Source of the DNA: an uncultured delta proteobacterium
Lineage (GTDB): Bacteria; Desulfobacterota; Binatia; UBA9968
Reading direction: 5' to 3'
Assembly (NCBI GenBank): GCA_963727625.1
Contig: CAVSHR010000002.1
Coordinates: 352,001-416,000, forward strand
Length of the DNA: 64,000 bases
Part shown: one piece after another, positions 30,200-39,158 of the stretch
How the letters are laid out: every line of letters starts with the position of its first letter
How positions within the stretch are numbered: position 1 is the first letter of the stretch
Translations under genes and position numbers: made by a program
The notes under the pieces: model-generated
Database searches by the model: none
What the model saw: only the letters and a program-made list of their open reading frames with translations
What the model was told of the DNA's origin: nothing

Positions 30200-30298
30200 C
30201 TTTCGGCGGCTCTGCTACCATGTCCTGTCCTTGGGCGACAGGAGTTAGGTCAGAAGCTTTGCGTCCCAACCTTTCGGTTGGTTTGCCTTTATCGTAGA
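30200..30298 (-). ncRNA. Cyclic di-GMP-I (GEMM) riboswitch
   Basis: Minus strand reads AAAGGCAAACCAACC-GAAA-GGTTGGGACGCAAAGCTTCTGACCTAA...ATGGTAGCAGAGCCGCCG: GNRA tetraloop, receptor and conserved GGCAAA/GACGCAAAG core, in the 5' UTR of the adhesin-like gene. Confidence 0.88.
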
Positions 30299-33647: not shown

Positions 33648-33761
33648 GTCGGTGACCTATAATTCGCCGAGAGCGGTCAATTGGCGGGATCCTCCGGCGA
33701 GTGTTTTGCGATCTTAAACCATCAAAGCTCAAACTCTCGATTCAGCCGCTGACCCCTAGAC

Positions 33762-34253
33762 CTACGCACTCTGAGCCTTTCTCTTCTTGAAGAACTGGAT
33801 ATGGCTCAAGGCGTCGGCGGCAACGATGCGCCCGATGGGGCCGATGCTGTACGAGGCATCGCAGACCTTTCTGTCCGAGTCGAGGATGAAATTCGTCGCG
33901 TGAATGATCTTTCTGCGCTCTTCCCAAAAGGCACCGATCTTGTCGGCGTCTCTCGGCACTTCGAGGCCATAGGCCGCGGGAAAGGTAAGCTGCAATTTTT
34001 CTACGGTCTCTTTCGCTTTGTCGAGGGGGTCGACGGATAGGGCGACGACGTCGACATTTTCTTTTTTGAACTCTTCGATATGCGATTGGTAGTCGGCTAA
34101 CTGCCGCATGCAGTACGGTCACCAACTGCCGCGATAAAAGATGAGAACCGCATATTCACCCGTGAGGTCCCGGGGAATTCGGACAGTTCGCCCGTCGACG
34201 GTTTGAACTTCATATTCAGGGAAAAGGTCGCCAGAGTTGAGTTGTCGTGCCAT
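33762..34253 (-). CDS. Peroxiredoxin-like (AhpC/TSA/redoxin) selenoprotein, Sec at codon 45 (FYRGSW-U-PYC)
   Basis: ATG at 34253 with GGAGG RBS; reads MARQLNSGDLFPEY...LIFYRGSW, TGA at 34121-34119, then PYCMRQL in frame with ORF 33762-34109. TGA occupies the first Cys of FYRGxWCPYC. Confidence 0.88.
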
Positions 34254-34552
34254 ATGCCCTCCGTGAGAAGTTAGTGGTCAAACTTCGATATCACGCACCG
34301 TTGCAACATCATTACACAAACTTCGGGTTAAACTGCGTTGTTGTCATCGGTTCGGTTGGCCGCGTATGTTGACTGCTTATATGATTAGTAGTAGGAGGTC
34401 AATTGGTTTGCAGCGCCGGCGCGAGCGCGGTTTCGTCGAGCGCGCCGGCGCCGAATCGCCGCCGATCACGACCGAGGCAAGCTTGAACGAAAGAAGCTCG
34501 CCGCGATTACGGGCAATGACGGTTTCGCGTCGAAAACGGAAAAGGCAGGGCC

Positions 34553-34849
34553 ATGATTGATCTTTACTACTGGACCACGCCGAACGGTCACAAAATCACG
34601 ATCTTTCTCGAAGAGGCGGCGCTGCCCTATTCGATCGCCGACATGGCCAGCTATCCCTGGATCGTGCCCCATGAACGGCATAAGCAAAAGCTCGACGAGT
34701 TTTCGAACTTGAATCGCTGGTTTCTGGCCATCGGGCGGCGACCCGCCGTGCAGCGCGCCTATGAATTGGCAAAAACGATCAACACGAAGCCGACGGTCAA
34801 CGAGGATTCGAAGTCCATCCTTTTTGGGCAAGGGAGGCGCTCGGTATAA
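34553..34849 (+). pseudogene. YfcG-like (Nu-class) GST with a large in-frame internal deletion
   Basis: N-terminal MIDLYYWTTPNGHKITIFLEE..LPY fused directly to C-terminal SIADMASYPW...RPAVQRAY; only 98 aa. Confidence 0.8.
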
Positions 34850-34939
34850 GTGTGGTGGGTTTGGAATCCACCTGTCTTCGACAACCGCCCGCCCGAAGCC
34901 GCAAGCTAAGCTTAGTCTGAGCCGAAAGGAGGAAGTTCG

Positions 34940-35611
34940 ATGCCGTGGATAAAAATTATACCCGAGCATGAGGCCGAGGGTGAGCTGAAAGAAGTCTATC
35001 GAAAGATAAAAAAACAACGCCAGGATGAGAAGATCAATCAAGATCGTGACGCAGGCCCCGGCGGCCCGCCCGTGAGCCCGCCGATGTTGCACAGCCTCAA
35101 TCCCAAAGCCATGTGGCACACCGCCGAGCTTATGTGGGAGATCATGCGCGGTGAGTCGCGTCTGACCACGGTGCAGCGCGAGATGATCGCTACGGTGACC
35201 TCGGCGACGCTGCACTGCCGCTTTTGAACCGTCGCCCACGCAGAGTTTCTGCGTCAGGAAGGCGGCGACGACCTGACGGCGGAGCAGGTTAAAGACGATT
35301 GGCGGCAAATGGAGTTGAGCGGAGCCGAATACGCCATGTTGGAATTTGCCGAAAAGCTCACGCTCACGCCGAGCAATATGCGCGAAACGGACGTGCAAAA
35401 ATTACACGATGCCGGCTGGACGGATCGCGACATCCTCGATATCGTCCATGTTTGCGCCTATTTTAATTTTCGCGTGCGCGTGGTCGACGGTCTTGGCCTG
35501 GAAGTCGCCGATTGGCAAGTCGAGCGCGCCCGCGCCGGTGCCGCGCGGGCGGCAGAAATCGCGAAAGAGCGCGGTGTGACGATGCCGGCCGATCCCTGGA
35601 AAGTACGTTGA
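34940..35611 (+). CDS. AhpD/carboxymuconolactone-decarboxylase-family selenoprotein 1 (HCRF-U-TVAH, Sec96)
   Basis: In-frame TGA at 35225-35227 joins ORFs 34940-35227 and 35309-35611 into a full peroxidase-related AhpD fold (REMIAT..S...CxxU...H; FAEKLTLTP; AYFNF..R..DGLG). Confidence 0.9.
35228..35269 (+). promoter_or_regulatory. Bacterial SECIS-like hairpin
   Basis: ACGCAGA-GTT-TCTGCGT (35238-35254), loop 17 nt after the TGA; lower stem GTCGCC/GGCGAC. Confidence 0.8.
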
Positions 35612-35621
35612 GGATTGCATC

Positions 35622-36269
35622 ATGAGCTTCATCAAAGTCGTTCGCGAATCGGAGGCGACCGGCGAGCTTCAGGAAGTTTACGAGCGGACGCTCAGCCGAT
35701 TGAGCCCTTCGGTGCGCCAGCGCCGCGGCGACAAGCTGCCGCCCATCGTCAGGATTTTCAGTCTCTGCCCGGCGCTGCTCGAAGCGCGGGTCGGTTTCGA
35801 CAAGGGCATCTATCGCCCCGGCCATTCCGGTTTGGGCCGGCGCAAGGAGGAGCTCATCGCCACGCAGGTGGCGGCGCTGAGCGGCTGCCGGTTTTGAGGC
35901 ATCGGCCACGGAGAGTTTCTCCGTGTCGACGGCAAAATGGCGGTGGAGGAAGTCGCCAAAGTGATCTCCAACTGGCGCGAGGCGGATCTGGACGAACAGG
36001 AGAAGGCCATGCTCGCGTTCACGGAAAAATTCACCCTCACGCCGAGTCAGATCACAGACGCCGATATCGAGGCGCTGCGCCGGGCGGGATTCGGCGAGGA
36101 GCAAATACTTTCCATCGCCCTGGGCGCCGGTTATCGAAACTGGGTGGATCGCATCGCCGATCTGCTCGGCGTCGAAGAGGAAAAATTCGACTTCCCCGAG
36201 GAAATCTTGAAAGCTTTCGGGGTAACGCGCGAGCAGCTTCAAACTTCGCTCTACGGGGATGACCGATGA
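35622..36269 (+). CDS. AhpD/CMD-family selenoprotein 2 (GCRF-U-GIGH, Sec92)
   Basis: In-frame TGA at 35895-35897 joins 35622-35897 to 35937-36269; EELIAT.VA....CxxU...H. Confidence 0.9.
35898..35930 (+). promoter_or_regulatory. Bacterial SECIS-like hairpin
   Basis: CACGGAGA-GTT-TCTCCGTG (35907-35925), loop 17 nt after the TGA; extends via TCGG/TCGA. Confidence 0.82.
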
Positions 36270-36718
36270 GCCGCTTGCAAATGGCCGCGGGAAAGAAACT
36301 CGAAAACTTGCTCGGCGCGGCGCCGGGCGCGCTTGAAGCTGACAGCGCGATGCGCACCCTGCTGATCGATCAATTGACACCGCGACTCTACAGTTTGATC
36401 GGCGTTGTGGTCGCCGGTTGTCTGCGTTGCGAAAAGTTCGTCGAAGCTCTGCGCGGGCCGCTGGACAATACTTTTGTTGCTCAAGCCGCGCGTGATTGGC
36501 GCGCGCTTGAACTCACGACGGTGGAAAAGGCAGTGCTGGCCTACGCGGAAAAAGGCACCATGGACGAGGCTTCGGTGCGCAAAGGGGAGATCGACGAGCT
36601 GCGCGCAGCCGGTCTTAGCGATCGAGACGTGTTATTGACCGCCACCGCGATCGCCTATCACAACTATTCGATTCGCATGGCGGCGGCGTTCGACGTTCTA
36701 CCGAGTGCGGGTGAATGA
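36266..36718 (+). CDS. AhpD/CMD-like protein, Cys form (CLRC)
   Basis: AGCLRC; DWRALEL...EKAVLAYAEK; LRAAGLSDRD; AYHNY..RMA; ATGA overlap with the previous gene. Confidence 0.8.
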   Translation: MSRLQMAAGKKLENLLGAAPGALEADSAMRTLLIDQLTPRLYSLIGVVVAGCLRCEKFVEALRGPLDNTFVAQAARDWRALELTTVEKAVLAYAEKGTMDEASVRKGEIDELRAAGLSDRDVLLTATAIAYHNYSIRMAAAFDVLPSAGE

Positions 36719-36748
36719 CCTAAAACCGAAAAGGAAGGATATTCCTAA

Positions 36749-37654
36749 ATGCGAGGCATAACTCCCAGACGAGAGCAGGGCATGGCCGATCCGGTGTTGG
36801 CCGAGATGGTTCATGCTACGGGGGCGACGGAGTCGCGCCACTACGCGGCGGTCAAGCCGACCATCCAAGCCTATCGCGCCAGTTGGGTGAAGCTCGCACC
36901 CTATCGAGATGGTCCCGTCAATTCGAATCGGGTGGCGGTCGACGATCCGGTGGCGATGACCGCTCAGGTCAAGGCAAAAGCATCGGCGTTGGGCGCCAAC
37001 CTGGTCGGGGTCTGTCGTTTGCAGCCGCATATGATCGATCTCGGTTCGGAATTGCCGCATGAATTCGTCATCGCGTGCTGCGTGGCGGAGGATTATGAAA
37101 AAGTCACTCAAGGGCCGGATGCGGTCGAAGAAGAAGCCATGCGGACCTATGCGAAATGCACCGAGATCGCCACGGATCTGGCCGCCTACGTGCGCGACCT
37201 GGGCTATCCCGCCATCGCCCATCACAACGGCGCCAGCGAAGTCCAGGCGATCCCGATTTTCTACCAGGTGGGCTTCGGCGAGCTGGGCCGGCACGGCAGT
37301 CTGATCAACGAGAAATACGGCGCGAGCTTCCGCCCGGGATTCGTGACCACGGACCTGCCGCTGGTGGAAGACCATCCGCGGGAATTCGGCGTGCAGGACT
37401 TCTGCATGACCTGCAACGTCTGCCAGCGCAACTGCCCGGGCGACGCGATACCGCAGGATCATGTCGTCACCCACGGCATCAAACGCTGGCTGATCGATCT
37501 GGAGAAATGCTACCCCTACTCGCGCTTGCGCGAAGAGTACTGTCATCTCTGCGTCGACGCCTGTCCGTACATCGTGAAGTCCTATCCCGAAACCTACAAA
37601 GCCTTCATGAAAGAGCGCAAGCAAGTGGGCTACAAAACGCCGAAGACCTATTGA
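36749..37654 (+). CDS. Reductive-dehalogenase/QueG-like cobalamin + 2x[4Fe-4S] protein (no Tat signal)
   Basis: KASALGANLVGVC, LGYPA, GFGELGRHG, VTTDLPL, CMTCNVCQRNCP and C-X10-CHLCVDACP. Confidence 0.82.
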   Translation: MRGITPRREQGMADPVLAEMVHATGATESRHYAAVKPTIQAYRASWVKLAPYRDGPVNSNRVAVDDPVAMTAQVKAKASALGANLVGVCRLQPHMIDLGSELPHEFVIACCVAEDYEKVTQGPDAVEEEAMRTYAKCTEIATDLAAYVRDLGYPAIAHHNGASEVQAIPIFYQVGFGELGRHGSLINEKYGASFRPGFVTTDLPLVEDHPREFGVQDFCMTCNVCQRNCPGDAIPQDHVVTHGIKRWLIDLEKCYPYSRLREEYCHLCVDACPYIVKSYPETYKAFMKERKQVGYKTPKTY

Positions 37655-37660
37655 ACTTTT

Positions 37661-37870
37661 ATGGAAAAACTCTACGTCAACGAAATCGGCCCCGATGGCC
37701 ACGTGAGCACCGCAGGCTTGTTCTATTCGCTGGCCGAGGCGCAAAGGATCGTCGAAATGCTGCGCGCCAATCCCGAGCGAGCGGGCTATCGGTATGAAAT
37801 CGTCGAGGCGGTGCGGCATACCTTAACCGAGAAGCAGGCGAATCCGACCGCGACCGCGCAGAAGGAGTGA
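37661..37870 (+). CDS. Small hypothetical protein
   Basis: 69-aa ORF filling the operon gap; its stop overlaps the RBS of the next gene. Confidence 0.55.
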   Translation: MEKLYVNEIGPDGHVSTAGLFYSLAEAQRIVEMLRANPERAGYRYEIVEAVRHTLTEKQANPTATAQKE

Positions 37871-37872
37871 CC

Positions 37873-38424
37873 ATGCCCTATATCAAAACCGTGCCGCCGG
37901 CCGAGGCCACCGGCAAGCTCAAGGAAGTTTACGAGTCCGGCTCCGGCCCGTCCGCGGCGCGCGGCAAGGTGTCGATGATCCGCCAGGTGCAAAGCCTCAA
38001 CACTGACAACCTCGCCGCCTGGCGCGCGCTCGACGTGTCGATCATGCGCGGCGAGTCGCGCATCACCCGGCGCCAGCGCGAGATGATCGCCACGGCGGTG
38101 TCGTCGACCAATCATTGCAGCTATTGAATGACCGCCCACGGAGAGGCTCTCCGTACCGAATCCAATGACGACCCGCTGGTCGAAGGCATCAAGCAGGATT
38201 ACACCCGACTGGATCTGCCGCCCGCCGAGCGCGCGATGCTCGACTACGCTGTCAAACTAACGGTGGCGCCGTCGACGGCGAATGAAGCGGATATCGAGAA
38301 CCTACGCGCCCACGGTTTCGATGATCGCGATATCTTGGACATCGTTTACGTCATTTGCCTTTATAACTTCAACGACCGCATGGCGGACGCCACCGGTATT
38401 ACCGGGCATGATTTTTTTAAGTGA
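37873..38424 (+). CDS. AhpD/CMD-family selenoprotein 3 (NHCSY-U-MTAH, Sec85)
   Basis: AAGGAG RBS; in-frame TGA at 38125-38127 joins 37867-38127 and 38128-38424; REMIATAVS..NHCxxU..AH; YNFNDRMADATG. Confidence 0.9.
38128..38154 (+). promoter_or_regulatory. Bacterial SECIS-like hairpin
   Basis: ACGGAGA-GGC-TCTCCGT (38138-38154), loop 17 nt after the TGA. Confidence 0.78.
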
Positions 38425-38469
38425 GTCATTTATTCACCGAGCGTCGCACTCGGTAAGATTGGAGAAAGC

Positions 38470-39015
38470 ATGAGCAAGTCGCCAGGGAAGATCGATCGCG
38501 CAGCGTTTCGCGAGGTGCATAAACAGCAGCAAGAGCGGGCCAAGCAAGGCCCGGAAGGATACACAACGACAACACGAGCTGTGATCCGGCTCATTGAAGG
38601 TCAATTGAAAGAAGCCCGCATCGGCGAATATACCATCCAGTGCGACGAGGCGAAGTCGCGCAAGGGCGGCGGCAAGGCGCCTTCGCCGCTGCAGTACTTC
38701 GTCGCGGCGACGGGATTTTGAATGTTCAGTCAACTGACGCGGTACGCGTCGCAACTGGACATCGAGATCGAAGACGCCGAGATGGACATTCGCATGACCT
38801 ACGACACCCGCGGCAAGCTGCTGCTCGCGGACGTGCATCCGGGCTGCCGCGAGCTGACCTACGTATTCAAGATCAAGAGCTCGGCGCCGTCGGAGAAGGT
38901 TCAGGAGATGCTGCGGCTGATCGAAAAAGGCTGCCACACGATCAATTCTTTGAAAATCCCGGTGCCGGTGGCCGGAAAGTTGATTCACAACGGTCAGGAA
39001 ATCGCCGCGCCGTAA
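38470..39015 (+). CDS. OsmC/Ohr-family selenoprotein (PSPLQYFVAATGF-U-MFSQ, Sec84; second Cys in EKGCH)
   Basis: DE....GG...PSPL.Y..AA.G.(C/U) OsmC motif; in-frame TGA at 38719-38721; C-half contains the typical second Cys. Confidence 0.88.
38722..38762 (+). promoter_or_regulatory. Bacterial SECIS-like hairpin
   Basis: Lower stem ATGTTCAGT/ACTGGACAT; upper stem GACGCG-GTA-CGCGTC; loop 20 nt after the TGA. Confidence 0.82.
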
Positions 39016-39079
39016 AACTTAGCCAGACGCAATTGAAATTCTCTGTTGCCTCGGACTTTAGGGAATCGGCACATGATGC

Positions 39080-39158
39080 CCCTCGCAAAGGCGCAAAGAC
39101 GCCAAGTTTGGAGAAGTACGAAAGAGTTTTCTTTGCGCGCTTAGCGCCTTGGCGAGGG
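39080..39158. repeat. REP-like palindrome (CGCAAAG/CTTTGCG type)
   Basis: CCCTCGCAAAGGCGCAAAGACGCCAAG...CTTTGCGCGCTTAGCGCCTTGGCGAGGG. Confidence 0.7.

Follow-up and report, generated by a model that had tools for sequence, protein, structure and literature searches.

Predicted SECIS hairpins within the coding sequences of clustered AhpD-like and OsmC-like selenoprotein genes of an uncultured delta proteobacterium

Hairpins directly downstream of four in-frame UGA codons

We analyzed four hairpins in a 64,000-nucleotide stretch of DNA from an uncultured delta proteobacterium (the whole stretch is referred to as the window, and coordinates given without a contig name are positions in it). Positions 34940-39015 of its + strand hold seven genes, four of which contain one in-frame TGA each; three of the four encode AhpD-like proteins and the other an OsmC-related protein. 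The hairpins in these genes are very probably bacterial selenocysteine insertion sequence (SECIS) elements that lie within the coding sequence, directly 3' of a UGA that stands in place of the CxxC motif's second Cys in the AhpD-like proteins and of the reactive Cys in the OsmC-like protein. We observed the structures themselves, a fixed spacing from the UGA, restriction to the TGA forms of the genes, compensating changes, a choice of codons that favors pairing, and the full selenocysteine (Sec) machinery in the same genome.

The first AhpD-like gene (gene A, 34940-35612, + strand) encodes a protein of 223 aa with the motif HCRFU, and its frame is open across its single TGA (35225-35227). This codon, which we read as Sec, aligns to Cys in homologues and to TGA in 66 distinct sites. 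The hairpin of gene A (35238-35254) is formed by ACGCAGA (35238-35244) and TCTGCGT (35248-35254), which pair over 7 bp around a GUU loop (35245-35247) beginning 17 nt after the UGA (+17). The same nucleotides also encode H-A-E-F-L-R. Gene B (35622-36269, + strand; 215 aa, GCRFU) has its UGA at 35895-35897 and a hairpin at 35907-35925, in which CACGGAGA (35907-35914) pairs with TCTCCGTG (35918-35925) over 8 bp, also with a GUU loop at +17. The third AhpD-like gene (gene F, 37873-38424, + strand; 183 aa, HCSYU) has its UGA at 38125-38127, followed at 38138-38154 by 7 bp between ACGGAGA (38138-38144) and TCTCCGT (38148-38154) with a GGC loop at +17. The initial annotation had described G-first three-base loops exactly 17 nt after the TGA on perfect stems in all three AhpD genes, with an Ala/Gly change (GCA/GGA) matched by a synonymous Leu change (CTG/CTC), and both observations hold, the stems being 7, 8, and 7 bp long.

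The OsmC-related gene (38470-39015, + strand; 181 aa, GFUMFS), with its UGA at 38719-38721, carries a two-tier element on the same strand. Its upper tier (38735-38741 with 38745-38751, UGACGCG/CGCGUCG) spans 7 bp and bears a GUA loop (38742-38744) at +20, and its lower tier (38722-38730 with 38754-38762) spans 9 bp. The structure proposed earlier for this gene, GACGCG-GTA-CGCGTC on a 9-bp lower stem, was recovered, and an added U-G pair brings the upper stem to its 7 bp. The UGA codons of gene B, gene F, and the OsmC-like gene were assigned from the sequence, the open frame, and the alignment of homologues.

Proteins were translated with TGA as U and scored against protein families with the curated NCBIfam cut-offs. 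The products of genes A, B, and F matched Pfam CMD and reached 127.9, 94.5, and 141.1 bits, respectively, for TIGR01926 (cut-off 81.8). The OsmC-like product matched Pfam OsmC and scored 145 bits for NF041052, OsmC_like_Se (cut-off 95). The CxxU...H segments of the three AhpD-like proteins (HCRFUTVAH, GCRFUGIGH, and HCSYUMTAH) aligned to the CxxCxxxH of 21 Cys forms, and the GFU of the OsmC-like protein aligned to GFC in 13 metagenomic Cys forms and in this genome's own Cys paralogue.

Folded alone, the hairpins of genes A, B, and F and of the OsmC-like gene had energies of -8.8, -12.0, -9.2, and -9.0 kcal/mol (z-scores -4.0, -4.8, -3.1, and -2.6), and the entire two-tier OsmC element (38722-38762) reached -18.3 kcal/mol (z-score -3.8). 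According to the Fig. 2 legend of PMC13188914, which summarizes the bSECISearch model of Zhang and Gladyshev (2005), a bacterial SECIS has a loop of 3-9 nt, a stem of 4-16 bp, a spacing of 16-37 nt, and a minimum free energy (MFE) of -7.5 kcal/mol or lower; a G is among the first two loop bases, mostly in the arrangement N1 G[G|U]N N2 with N1 and N2 paired. The initial annotation had claimed a fit to the bacterial SECIS model, and all four elements indeed lie within the limits of that legend, with loops of 3 nt, stems of 7, 8, 7, and 7 bp, spacings of 17, 17, 17, and 20 nt, and energies below -7.5 kcal/mol throughout. The loops GUU, GUU, GGC, and GUA have, at one of their two leading positions, the G that is usually followed by G or U. 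Nothing in the four elements falls outside the consensus, although the loops are as small as it allows (3 nt) and the spacings are close to its minimum (16 nt).

Pairing in TGA forms and Cys forms

AhpD homologues drawn from many phyla were scanned with one genome per species. In the 78 loci obtained, the shared CxxU/C...H register held TGA at 66 distinct sites and Cys at 21. A positioned hairpin was defined as one located 13-23 nt after the codon with a G in the first two loop bases. With a stem of at least 5 bp, such a hairpin was present in 59 of the 66 TGA forms but in only 6 of the 21 Cys forms (Fisher p = 2e-7); with at least 6 bp, the counts were 54/66 and 1/21. The remaining seven TGA forms, a subgroup with H-x-[ED]-D-L-R-A-E, have a 7 bp hairpin at +24 with a G-first six-base loop.

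When 69 TGA forms, 68 of them distinct, were aligned without gaps, the 7 bp helix was 84.7% paired, compared with 35-54% when the 3' partners were slid, and the pairing and covariation score of these forms was reached by none of 500 shuffles. The Cys forms (n = 21) were 48.3% paired, the same as the shuffles and the slid controls. It had been stated at the outset that equally good retention of the stems in Cys-encoding homologues would speak against the SECIS assignment, and the Cys forms did not retain them. Three stem pairs had changed on both sides, namely C-G to U-A (n = 4), G-C to C-G (n = 8), and A-U to C-G or G-C (n = 7). Together with pairing above the level of synonymous resampling (described below), these changes agree with the earlier proposal of covarying hairpins overlaid on the active-site coding sequence. 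Genes A, B, and F are paralogues, and their hairpins therefore do not represent three independent events.

The cluster also contains an AhpD-type gene without a hairpin, which served as an internal control. This Cys paralogue (36266-36718, + strand), which carries a CLRC motif and was recognized by its tblastn similarity to genes A, B, and F, scored 47.7 bits for TIGR01926, below the cut-off. Its fold z-score was -0.47, and in its orthologues in related genomes just 2 bp were paired at the homologous place.

For OsmC, 80 metagenome loci gave 35 distinct TGA forms and 13 Cys forms. An upper stem of at least 6 bp was present in 34 of the 35 TGA forms, and the loop was GUA in every one. When the window copy and the genome's two TGA paralogues were added (38 TGA forms), the upper helix was 98.9% paired and the lower helix 86.8%, compared with 56.1% and 54% in the Cys forms. 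The two OsmC-like TGA paralogues of this genome present the GUA loop on differing stems (ugcccg/cgggca and uuucccg/cggggaa).

Sec machinery and predicted decoding

The genome encodes a tRNA-Sec (C5:768830-768920, 76.7 bits) with the anticodon UCA. On the same contig, about 50 kb from the tRNA-Sec gene, selA, selB, and selD are adjacent (C5, 715340-719466), and selD itself contains one in-frame TGA. The complete host set of selA, selB, selC, and selD is therefore present.

In the model derived from Escherichia coli and Moorella, SelB in complex with GTP and Sec-tRNA(Sec) recognizes the hairpin and inserts Sec at the UGA. The SECIS elements of E. coli fdhF and Moorella thermoacetica fdhA are bound by SelB and have a small apical loop, some 20 nt downstream of the UGA, in which a G-U is exposed. 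One UGSC gene and one deiodinase-like gene of the present genome have a GGUC loop at +17. The elements in the window resemble them in exposing a G-U in a small loop at about this distance, but differ in having a loop of 3 nt and no bulged U, and the GGC loop of gene F lacks the U. By analogy with this model, SelB would bind the four hairpins and the UGA codons would be read through. With the ribosome at the UGA, SelB loaded with GTP and Sec-tRNA(Sec) would use its C-terminal winged-helix domain to bind the exposed G[G/U] of the apical loop, and Sec would then be delivered to the A site instead of release factor 2. The ribosome would subsequently melt the hairpin and decode it, giving H-[A/G]-E-[F/A]-L-R for the AhpD-like genes and L-T-R-Y-A-S for the OsmC-like gene.

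Genome-wide occurrence of the hairpin

The initial annotation had also suggested that the motif could be used to find more selenoproteins. The hairpin pattern alone showed no peak at +17 among all 195,703 TGA triplets of the genome; a G-first three-base loop on a stem of at least 6 bp was found at offset 17 in 189 of them, which gives an estimate of chance occurrence, and the matches at offsets 15-21 numbered 1275 in the whole genome. Similarly, a G-first three-base loop with at least 5 bp at +16 to +22 followed 30 of 1432 ordinary TGA stops (2.1%) and 95 of 5379 Cys codons in long open reading frames (ORFs; 1.8%). The initial annotation had proposed a covariance model. One built from 69 AhpD elements (R1) recovered only its three training sites from the genome (E <= 6e-5), the next E-value being above 6, and it missed the two other CMD-family TGA genes of this genome.

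Candidate TGAs were also selected by a codon-usage test for coding on both sides of the TGA. The first threshold was too strict (6 matches, with known genes missed) and was relaxed after calibration, which gave 912 candidate TGAs genome-wide. Among these, G-first three-base loops peaked at +17 to +20, with 8, 10, 6, and 6 occurrences against about 2-3 elsewhere. Thirty-nine chosen candidates were scanned for protein families, and 30 had a match covering or adjoining the U. The matches were to CMD (2), Prx-like/AhpC-TSA (10), GrdB-like (4), GrdA, PrdB-like, OsmC-like (2), UGSC (2), and rhodanese (2), and further to DsbA-like, thioredoxin fused to TIR, glutaredoxin, ArsM-like, MerB-like, MetE-like, and DUF411 proteins. 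The other nine were dropped, eight because they had no family and one (L115) because it consisted of two adjacent genes in one frame. Including five genes in the window, at least 35 TGA genes of this genome are supported by a protein family. Of these 35, 20 carry a G-first three-base loop of at least 5 bp at +16 to +22, against the 2.1% of ordinary TGA stops and 1.8% of Cys codons given above. The hairpin alone is thus too weak as a search tool, and with the coding-continuation test it led to about 30 more genes. The ten largest selenoprotein sets listed in Table 2 of PMC13326102 comprise 46-63 genes, and the set of at least 35 found here lies below them.

Alternative explanations

The initial annotation had regarded the compact G-N-N loop as specific to this lineage. 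In its strong form, this idea holds that a special, lineage-restricted SECIS, shorter and more rigidly spaced than others and read by this lineage's own SelB, is at work and helps explain the large selenoproteome, which we consider unlikely. The nearest labelled relatives of this genome are metagenome-assembled genomes designated Binatia and "delta proteobacterium", and in all 22 AhpD sites of the closest relatives (Binatia, "delta proteobacterium", Syntrophobacteraceae, and others) the loop has three bases and begins at +17. The best hairpin likewise has a three-base loop in 23 of the 35 family-supported genes, with most loops starting at +17 to +22. However, the G-first three-base loop at +17 occurs in 33 of the 66 AhpD TGA sites, and the 11 that do not come from close relatives carry the labels Ardenticatenaceae, Calditrichaceae, Calditrichia, Blastocatellia, Acidobacteriota, Gemmatimonadota (2), Bacillus sp., Halanaerobiaceae, Dehalococcoidia, and one further bacterium, so that at least seven other groups are represented in the AhpD set, namely Chloroflexota, Calditrichia, Acidobacteriota, Gemmatimonadota, Bacillus, Halanaerobiaceae, and Dehalococcoidia. 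In 17 further AhpD TGA sites, the same helix is present with its innermost pair open (loops CGGGU and CGGGA). In addition, 12 of the 35 genes have no three-base loop in their best hairpin. Eleven of these have loops of 4, 5, or 9 bases (AGUU, GGUC, GGAC, CGGGA, and others), and the DsbA-like gene lacks a perfect hairpin of at least 4 bp. As the loop is found in other groups and equals the consensus loop given in PMC13188914 (3-9 nt with a core G[G|U]N within the closing pair), lineage specificity is not supported.

A related conjecture, which we likewise think improbable, is that the SelB of this lineage (probably Binatia) accepts an unusually minimal signal, in which a G[G/U]N three-base loop tops a hairpin about 17-19 nt long at a tightly fixed distance of 17-22 nt from the UGA, and that this explains the repeated gain of Sec in AhpD-like, Prx-like, OsmC-like, and GrdB-like paralogues and the presence of at least 35 such genes. 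If this were true, a short signal that is easy to evolve within coding sequence could account for the repeated origin of selenoproteins. We found no publication joining "Binatia" with "selenoprotein". The supplementary tables of the papers cited here may already contain loop and spacing statistics of this kind.

Several results weigh against the interpretation of the four hairpins as SECIS elements. The number of stem pairs changed on both sides in the AhpD alignment (3) was reached in 146 of 500 shuffles, so the covariation is modest, and the sequences are related. AhpD homologues with TGA and with Cys could not be told apart by total MFE over the 36 nt that follow the codon (p = 0.30), and this comparison was replaced by the positioned-helix tests. 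When 60 nt of context was folded, the z-scores of the four genes were weak (-1.1 to -1.8); these values are uninformative because the coding sequence is G+C-rich. No Rfam family matched the hairpins, either at the gathering score over the whole window or at E <= 10 over 33700-39100, where the four weak matches obtained were all unrelated. The occurrence of a G-first three-base loop of at least 5 bp at +16 to +22 in 20 of the 35 family-supported TGA genes is biased upward, since part of this set came from a list compiled by hairpin; of the genes chosen solely by Cys context, 9 of 19 had such a loop (27 of the 71 candidates of this kind were family-scanned). Among the 13 OsmC Cys forms, an 8 bp stem persists in two, though with the loops AUU and UUU, and the other 11 have 0-3 bp paired. 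Finally, the protein sequence itself accounts for some of the complementarity. When the codons of each sequence were redrawn from the codon usage of its own locus (500 synonymous resamples), the AhpD TGA forms were still expected to be 56.9% paired.

The last two points, together with a stem in one MetE-like Cys orthologue, are also what favors the view that the stems arise from the amino-acid sequence alone, H-G-E-x-L-R for example being encoded as CAC GGA GAG ... CTC CGT, and have no function as RNA. We consider this very improbable. The 84.7% pairing observed in the TGA forms exceeded all 500 resample means, and 39 of the 68 distinct TGA forms were individually in the top 5% of their own resamples. 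In contrast, the Cys forms, which are similar in sequence, stayed at the resample level (48.3% observed against 50.4% expected), and none of the 21 was in its top 5%. Most TGA forms use CGT for the Arg that closes the stem, but the codon varies in Cys forms, and the compensating changes couple one non-synonymous with one synonymous change. That the TGAs are instead real stops of split or dead genes, or a codon reassigned genome-wide, with hairpins serving termination or pausing, is the least credible possibility, because, although the TGA would be taken as the end of each gene in standard gene calling, the family profiles cross it in one frame, it aligns to the catalytic Cys, the TGA forms are conserved in many genomes, the full Sec machinery is present, and TGA terminates 1432 long ORFs here and is therefore not reassigned throughout the genome.

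Relation to known selenoproteins

The interpretation as in-frame SECIS elements also agrees with what has been described for these protein families. AhpD-like (CxxU, 27 sequences) and OsmC-like (UxxT) selenoproteins were reported from the Sargasso Sea in 2005 (PMC1088965), and the Fig. 3 legend of that paper names predicted SECIS elements of both families. The AhpD-like proteins found here exceed the cut-off of this family's model, TIGR01926, and share its CxxU motif and a predicted SECIS immediately 3' of the UGA; the present cluster differs in combining three paralogues with a Cys paralogue in a soil-type genome. The OsmC-like protein likewise passes the cut-off of its family and has a predicted SECIS after the UGA. 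The window copy, however, has U-M-F-S (UxxS) in place of the UxxT given in PMC1088965, whereas the two OsmC-like paralogues elsewhere in the genome have U-L-L-T. Operon-like clusters of Prx-like and AhpD-like selenoprotein genes also appear among the published examples in PMC1088965 and PMC13188914. Both this type of element and these protein families are thus known, and what is new is their members from a lineage whose selenoproteome we did not find in print.

The consequences are mainly for annotation, as four genes within 4.1 kb would be called truncated or split unless the UGA is taken as Sec. The genes also provide an example of dual coding, in which an RNA helix fixes the choice of codons and, in part, of amino acids (Leu and the CGT-encoded Arg) right after the catalytic CxxU...H. 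The general picture of bacterial Sec insertion is unchanged.

Gene cluster and further selenoprotein candidates

Between the Cys paralogue and gene F, the cluster contains a gene for a reductive-dehalogenase-like 4Fe-4S protein (36749-37654, + strand) and a 69-codon ORF (37661-37870, + strand). Three relatives (L015, L018, and L055) have the first four AhpD-type sites at the same spacing as here; another (L026) has genes A and B and the Cys paralogue at the same spacing, and L012 has genes A and F. An additional AhpD-like TGA gene lies 3' of gene F in L055 and L014. Judging from the gene order, positions 34940-39015 could form a single redox operon.

A fifth selenoprotein gene adjoins the cluster upstream, on the minus strand. 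It encodes a Prx-like (AhpC-TSA) protein (33762-34253) with its TGA at 34119-34121 in the context YRGSWUPYC, and has a weaker hairpin, in which an AGUUA loop beginning at about +16 is closed by 4 bp. A Prx-like paralogue at C4:691721-692344 carries ucggca-GGU-ugccga at +17.

Elsewhere in the genome, four GrdB-like genes encoding ILTSTUGTSTRSGA and variants all have a three-base loop, c-GGC-g, at +18. One GrdA and one PrdB-like gene are present as well (loci L101-L104, L114, and L098, all six genes together), which was unexpected, as the genome does not look clostridial.

A MetE-like gene (L107, C3:159959-161125, minus strand) encodes FGFH-I-U-RGNQ, with Pfam Meth_synt_2 spanning the site, and carries the hairpin ggcagcc-GGU-ggcuguc at +19. 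Its paralogues have H-x-C at this position, and the Cys replaced is presumably the zinc-binding Cys of MetE. Among orthologues in relatives, 14 of 15 full-length matches contained one in-frame TGA (with genome G005 set aside). The TGA was at the aligned codon in nine of ten loci checked, and the tenth had TGC with the stem kept. In this genome, TGC without a stem is found in four MetE-like paralogues. The terms "Methionine synthase" and "PF01717" are absent from the main text of both the 2026 review and the BSepDB paper, and the MetE-like protein may represent an undescribed selenoprotein family.

Three Cys homologues retain the full stem, namely the MetE-like L217 in relative G009 (loop GUU) and the metagenomic OsmC-like L189 and L193 (AUU and UUU, respectively). 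They resemble genes that have recently switched between Sec and Cys, sampled before or after decay of the hairpin.

A DUF411 protein (L090, C4:166040-166513) contains YKTPTUGCCDGW, and its gene has an 8 bp hairpin with a GGU loop at +17. The Pfam match covers residues 88-133, short of the U at residue 46. "DUF411" is likewise absent from the main text of the 2026 review and the BSepDB paper. A c-di-GMP-I-GGC riboswitch aptamer (RF03167) was detected on the minus strand of the window at 30201-30296, with 70.5 bits (gathering score 59).

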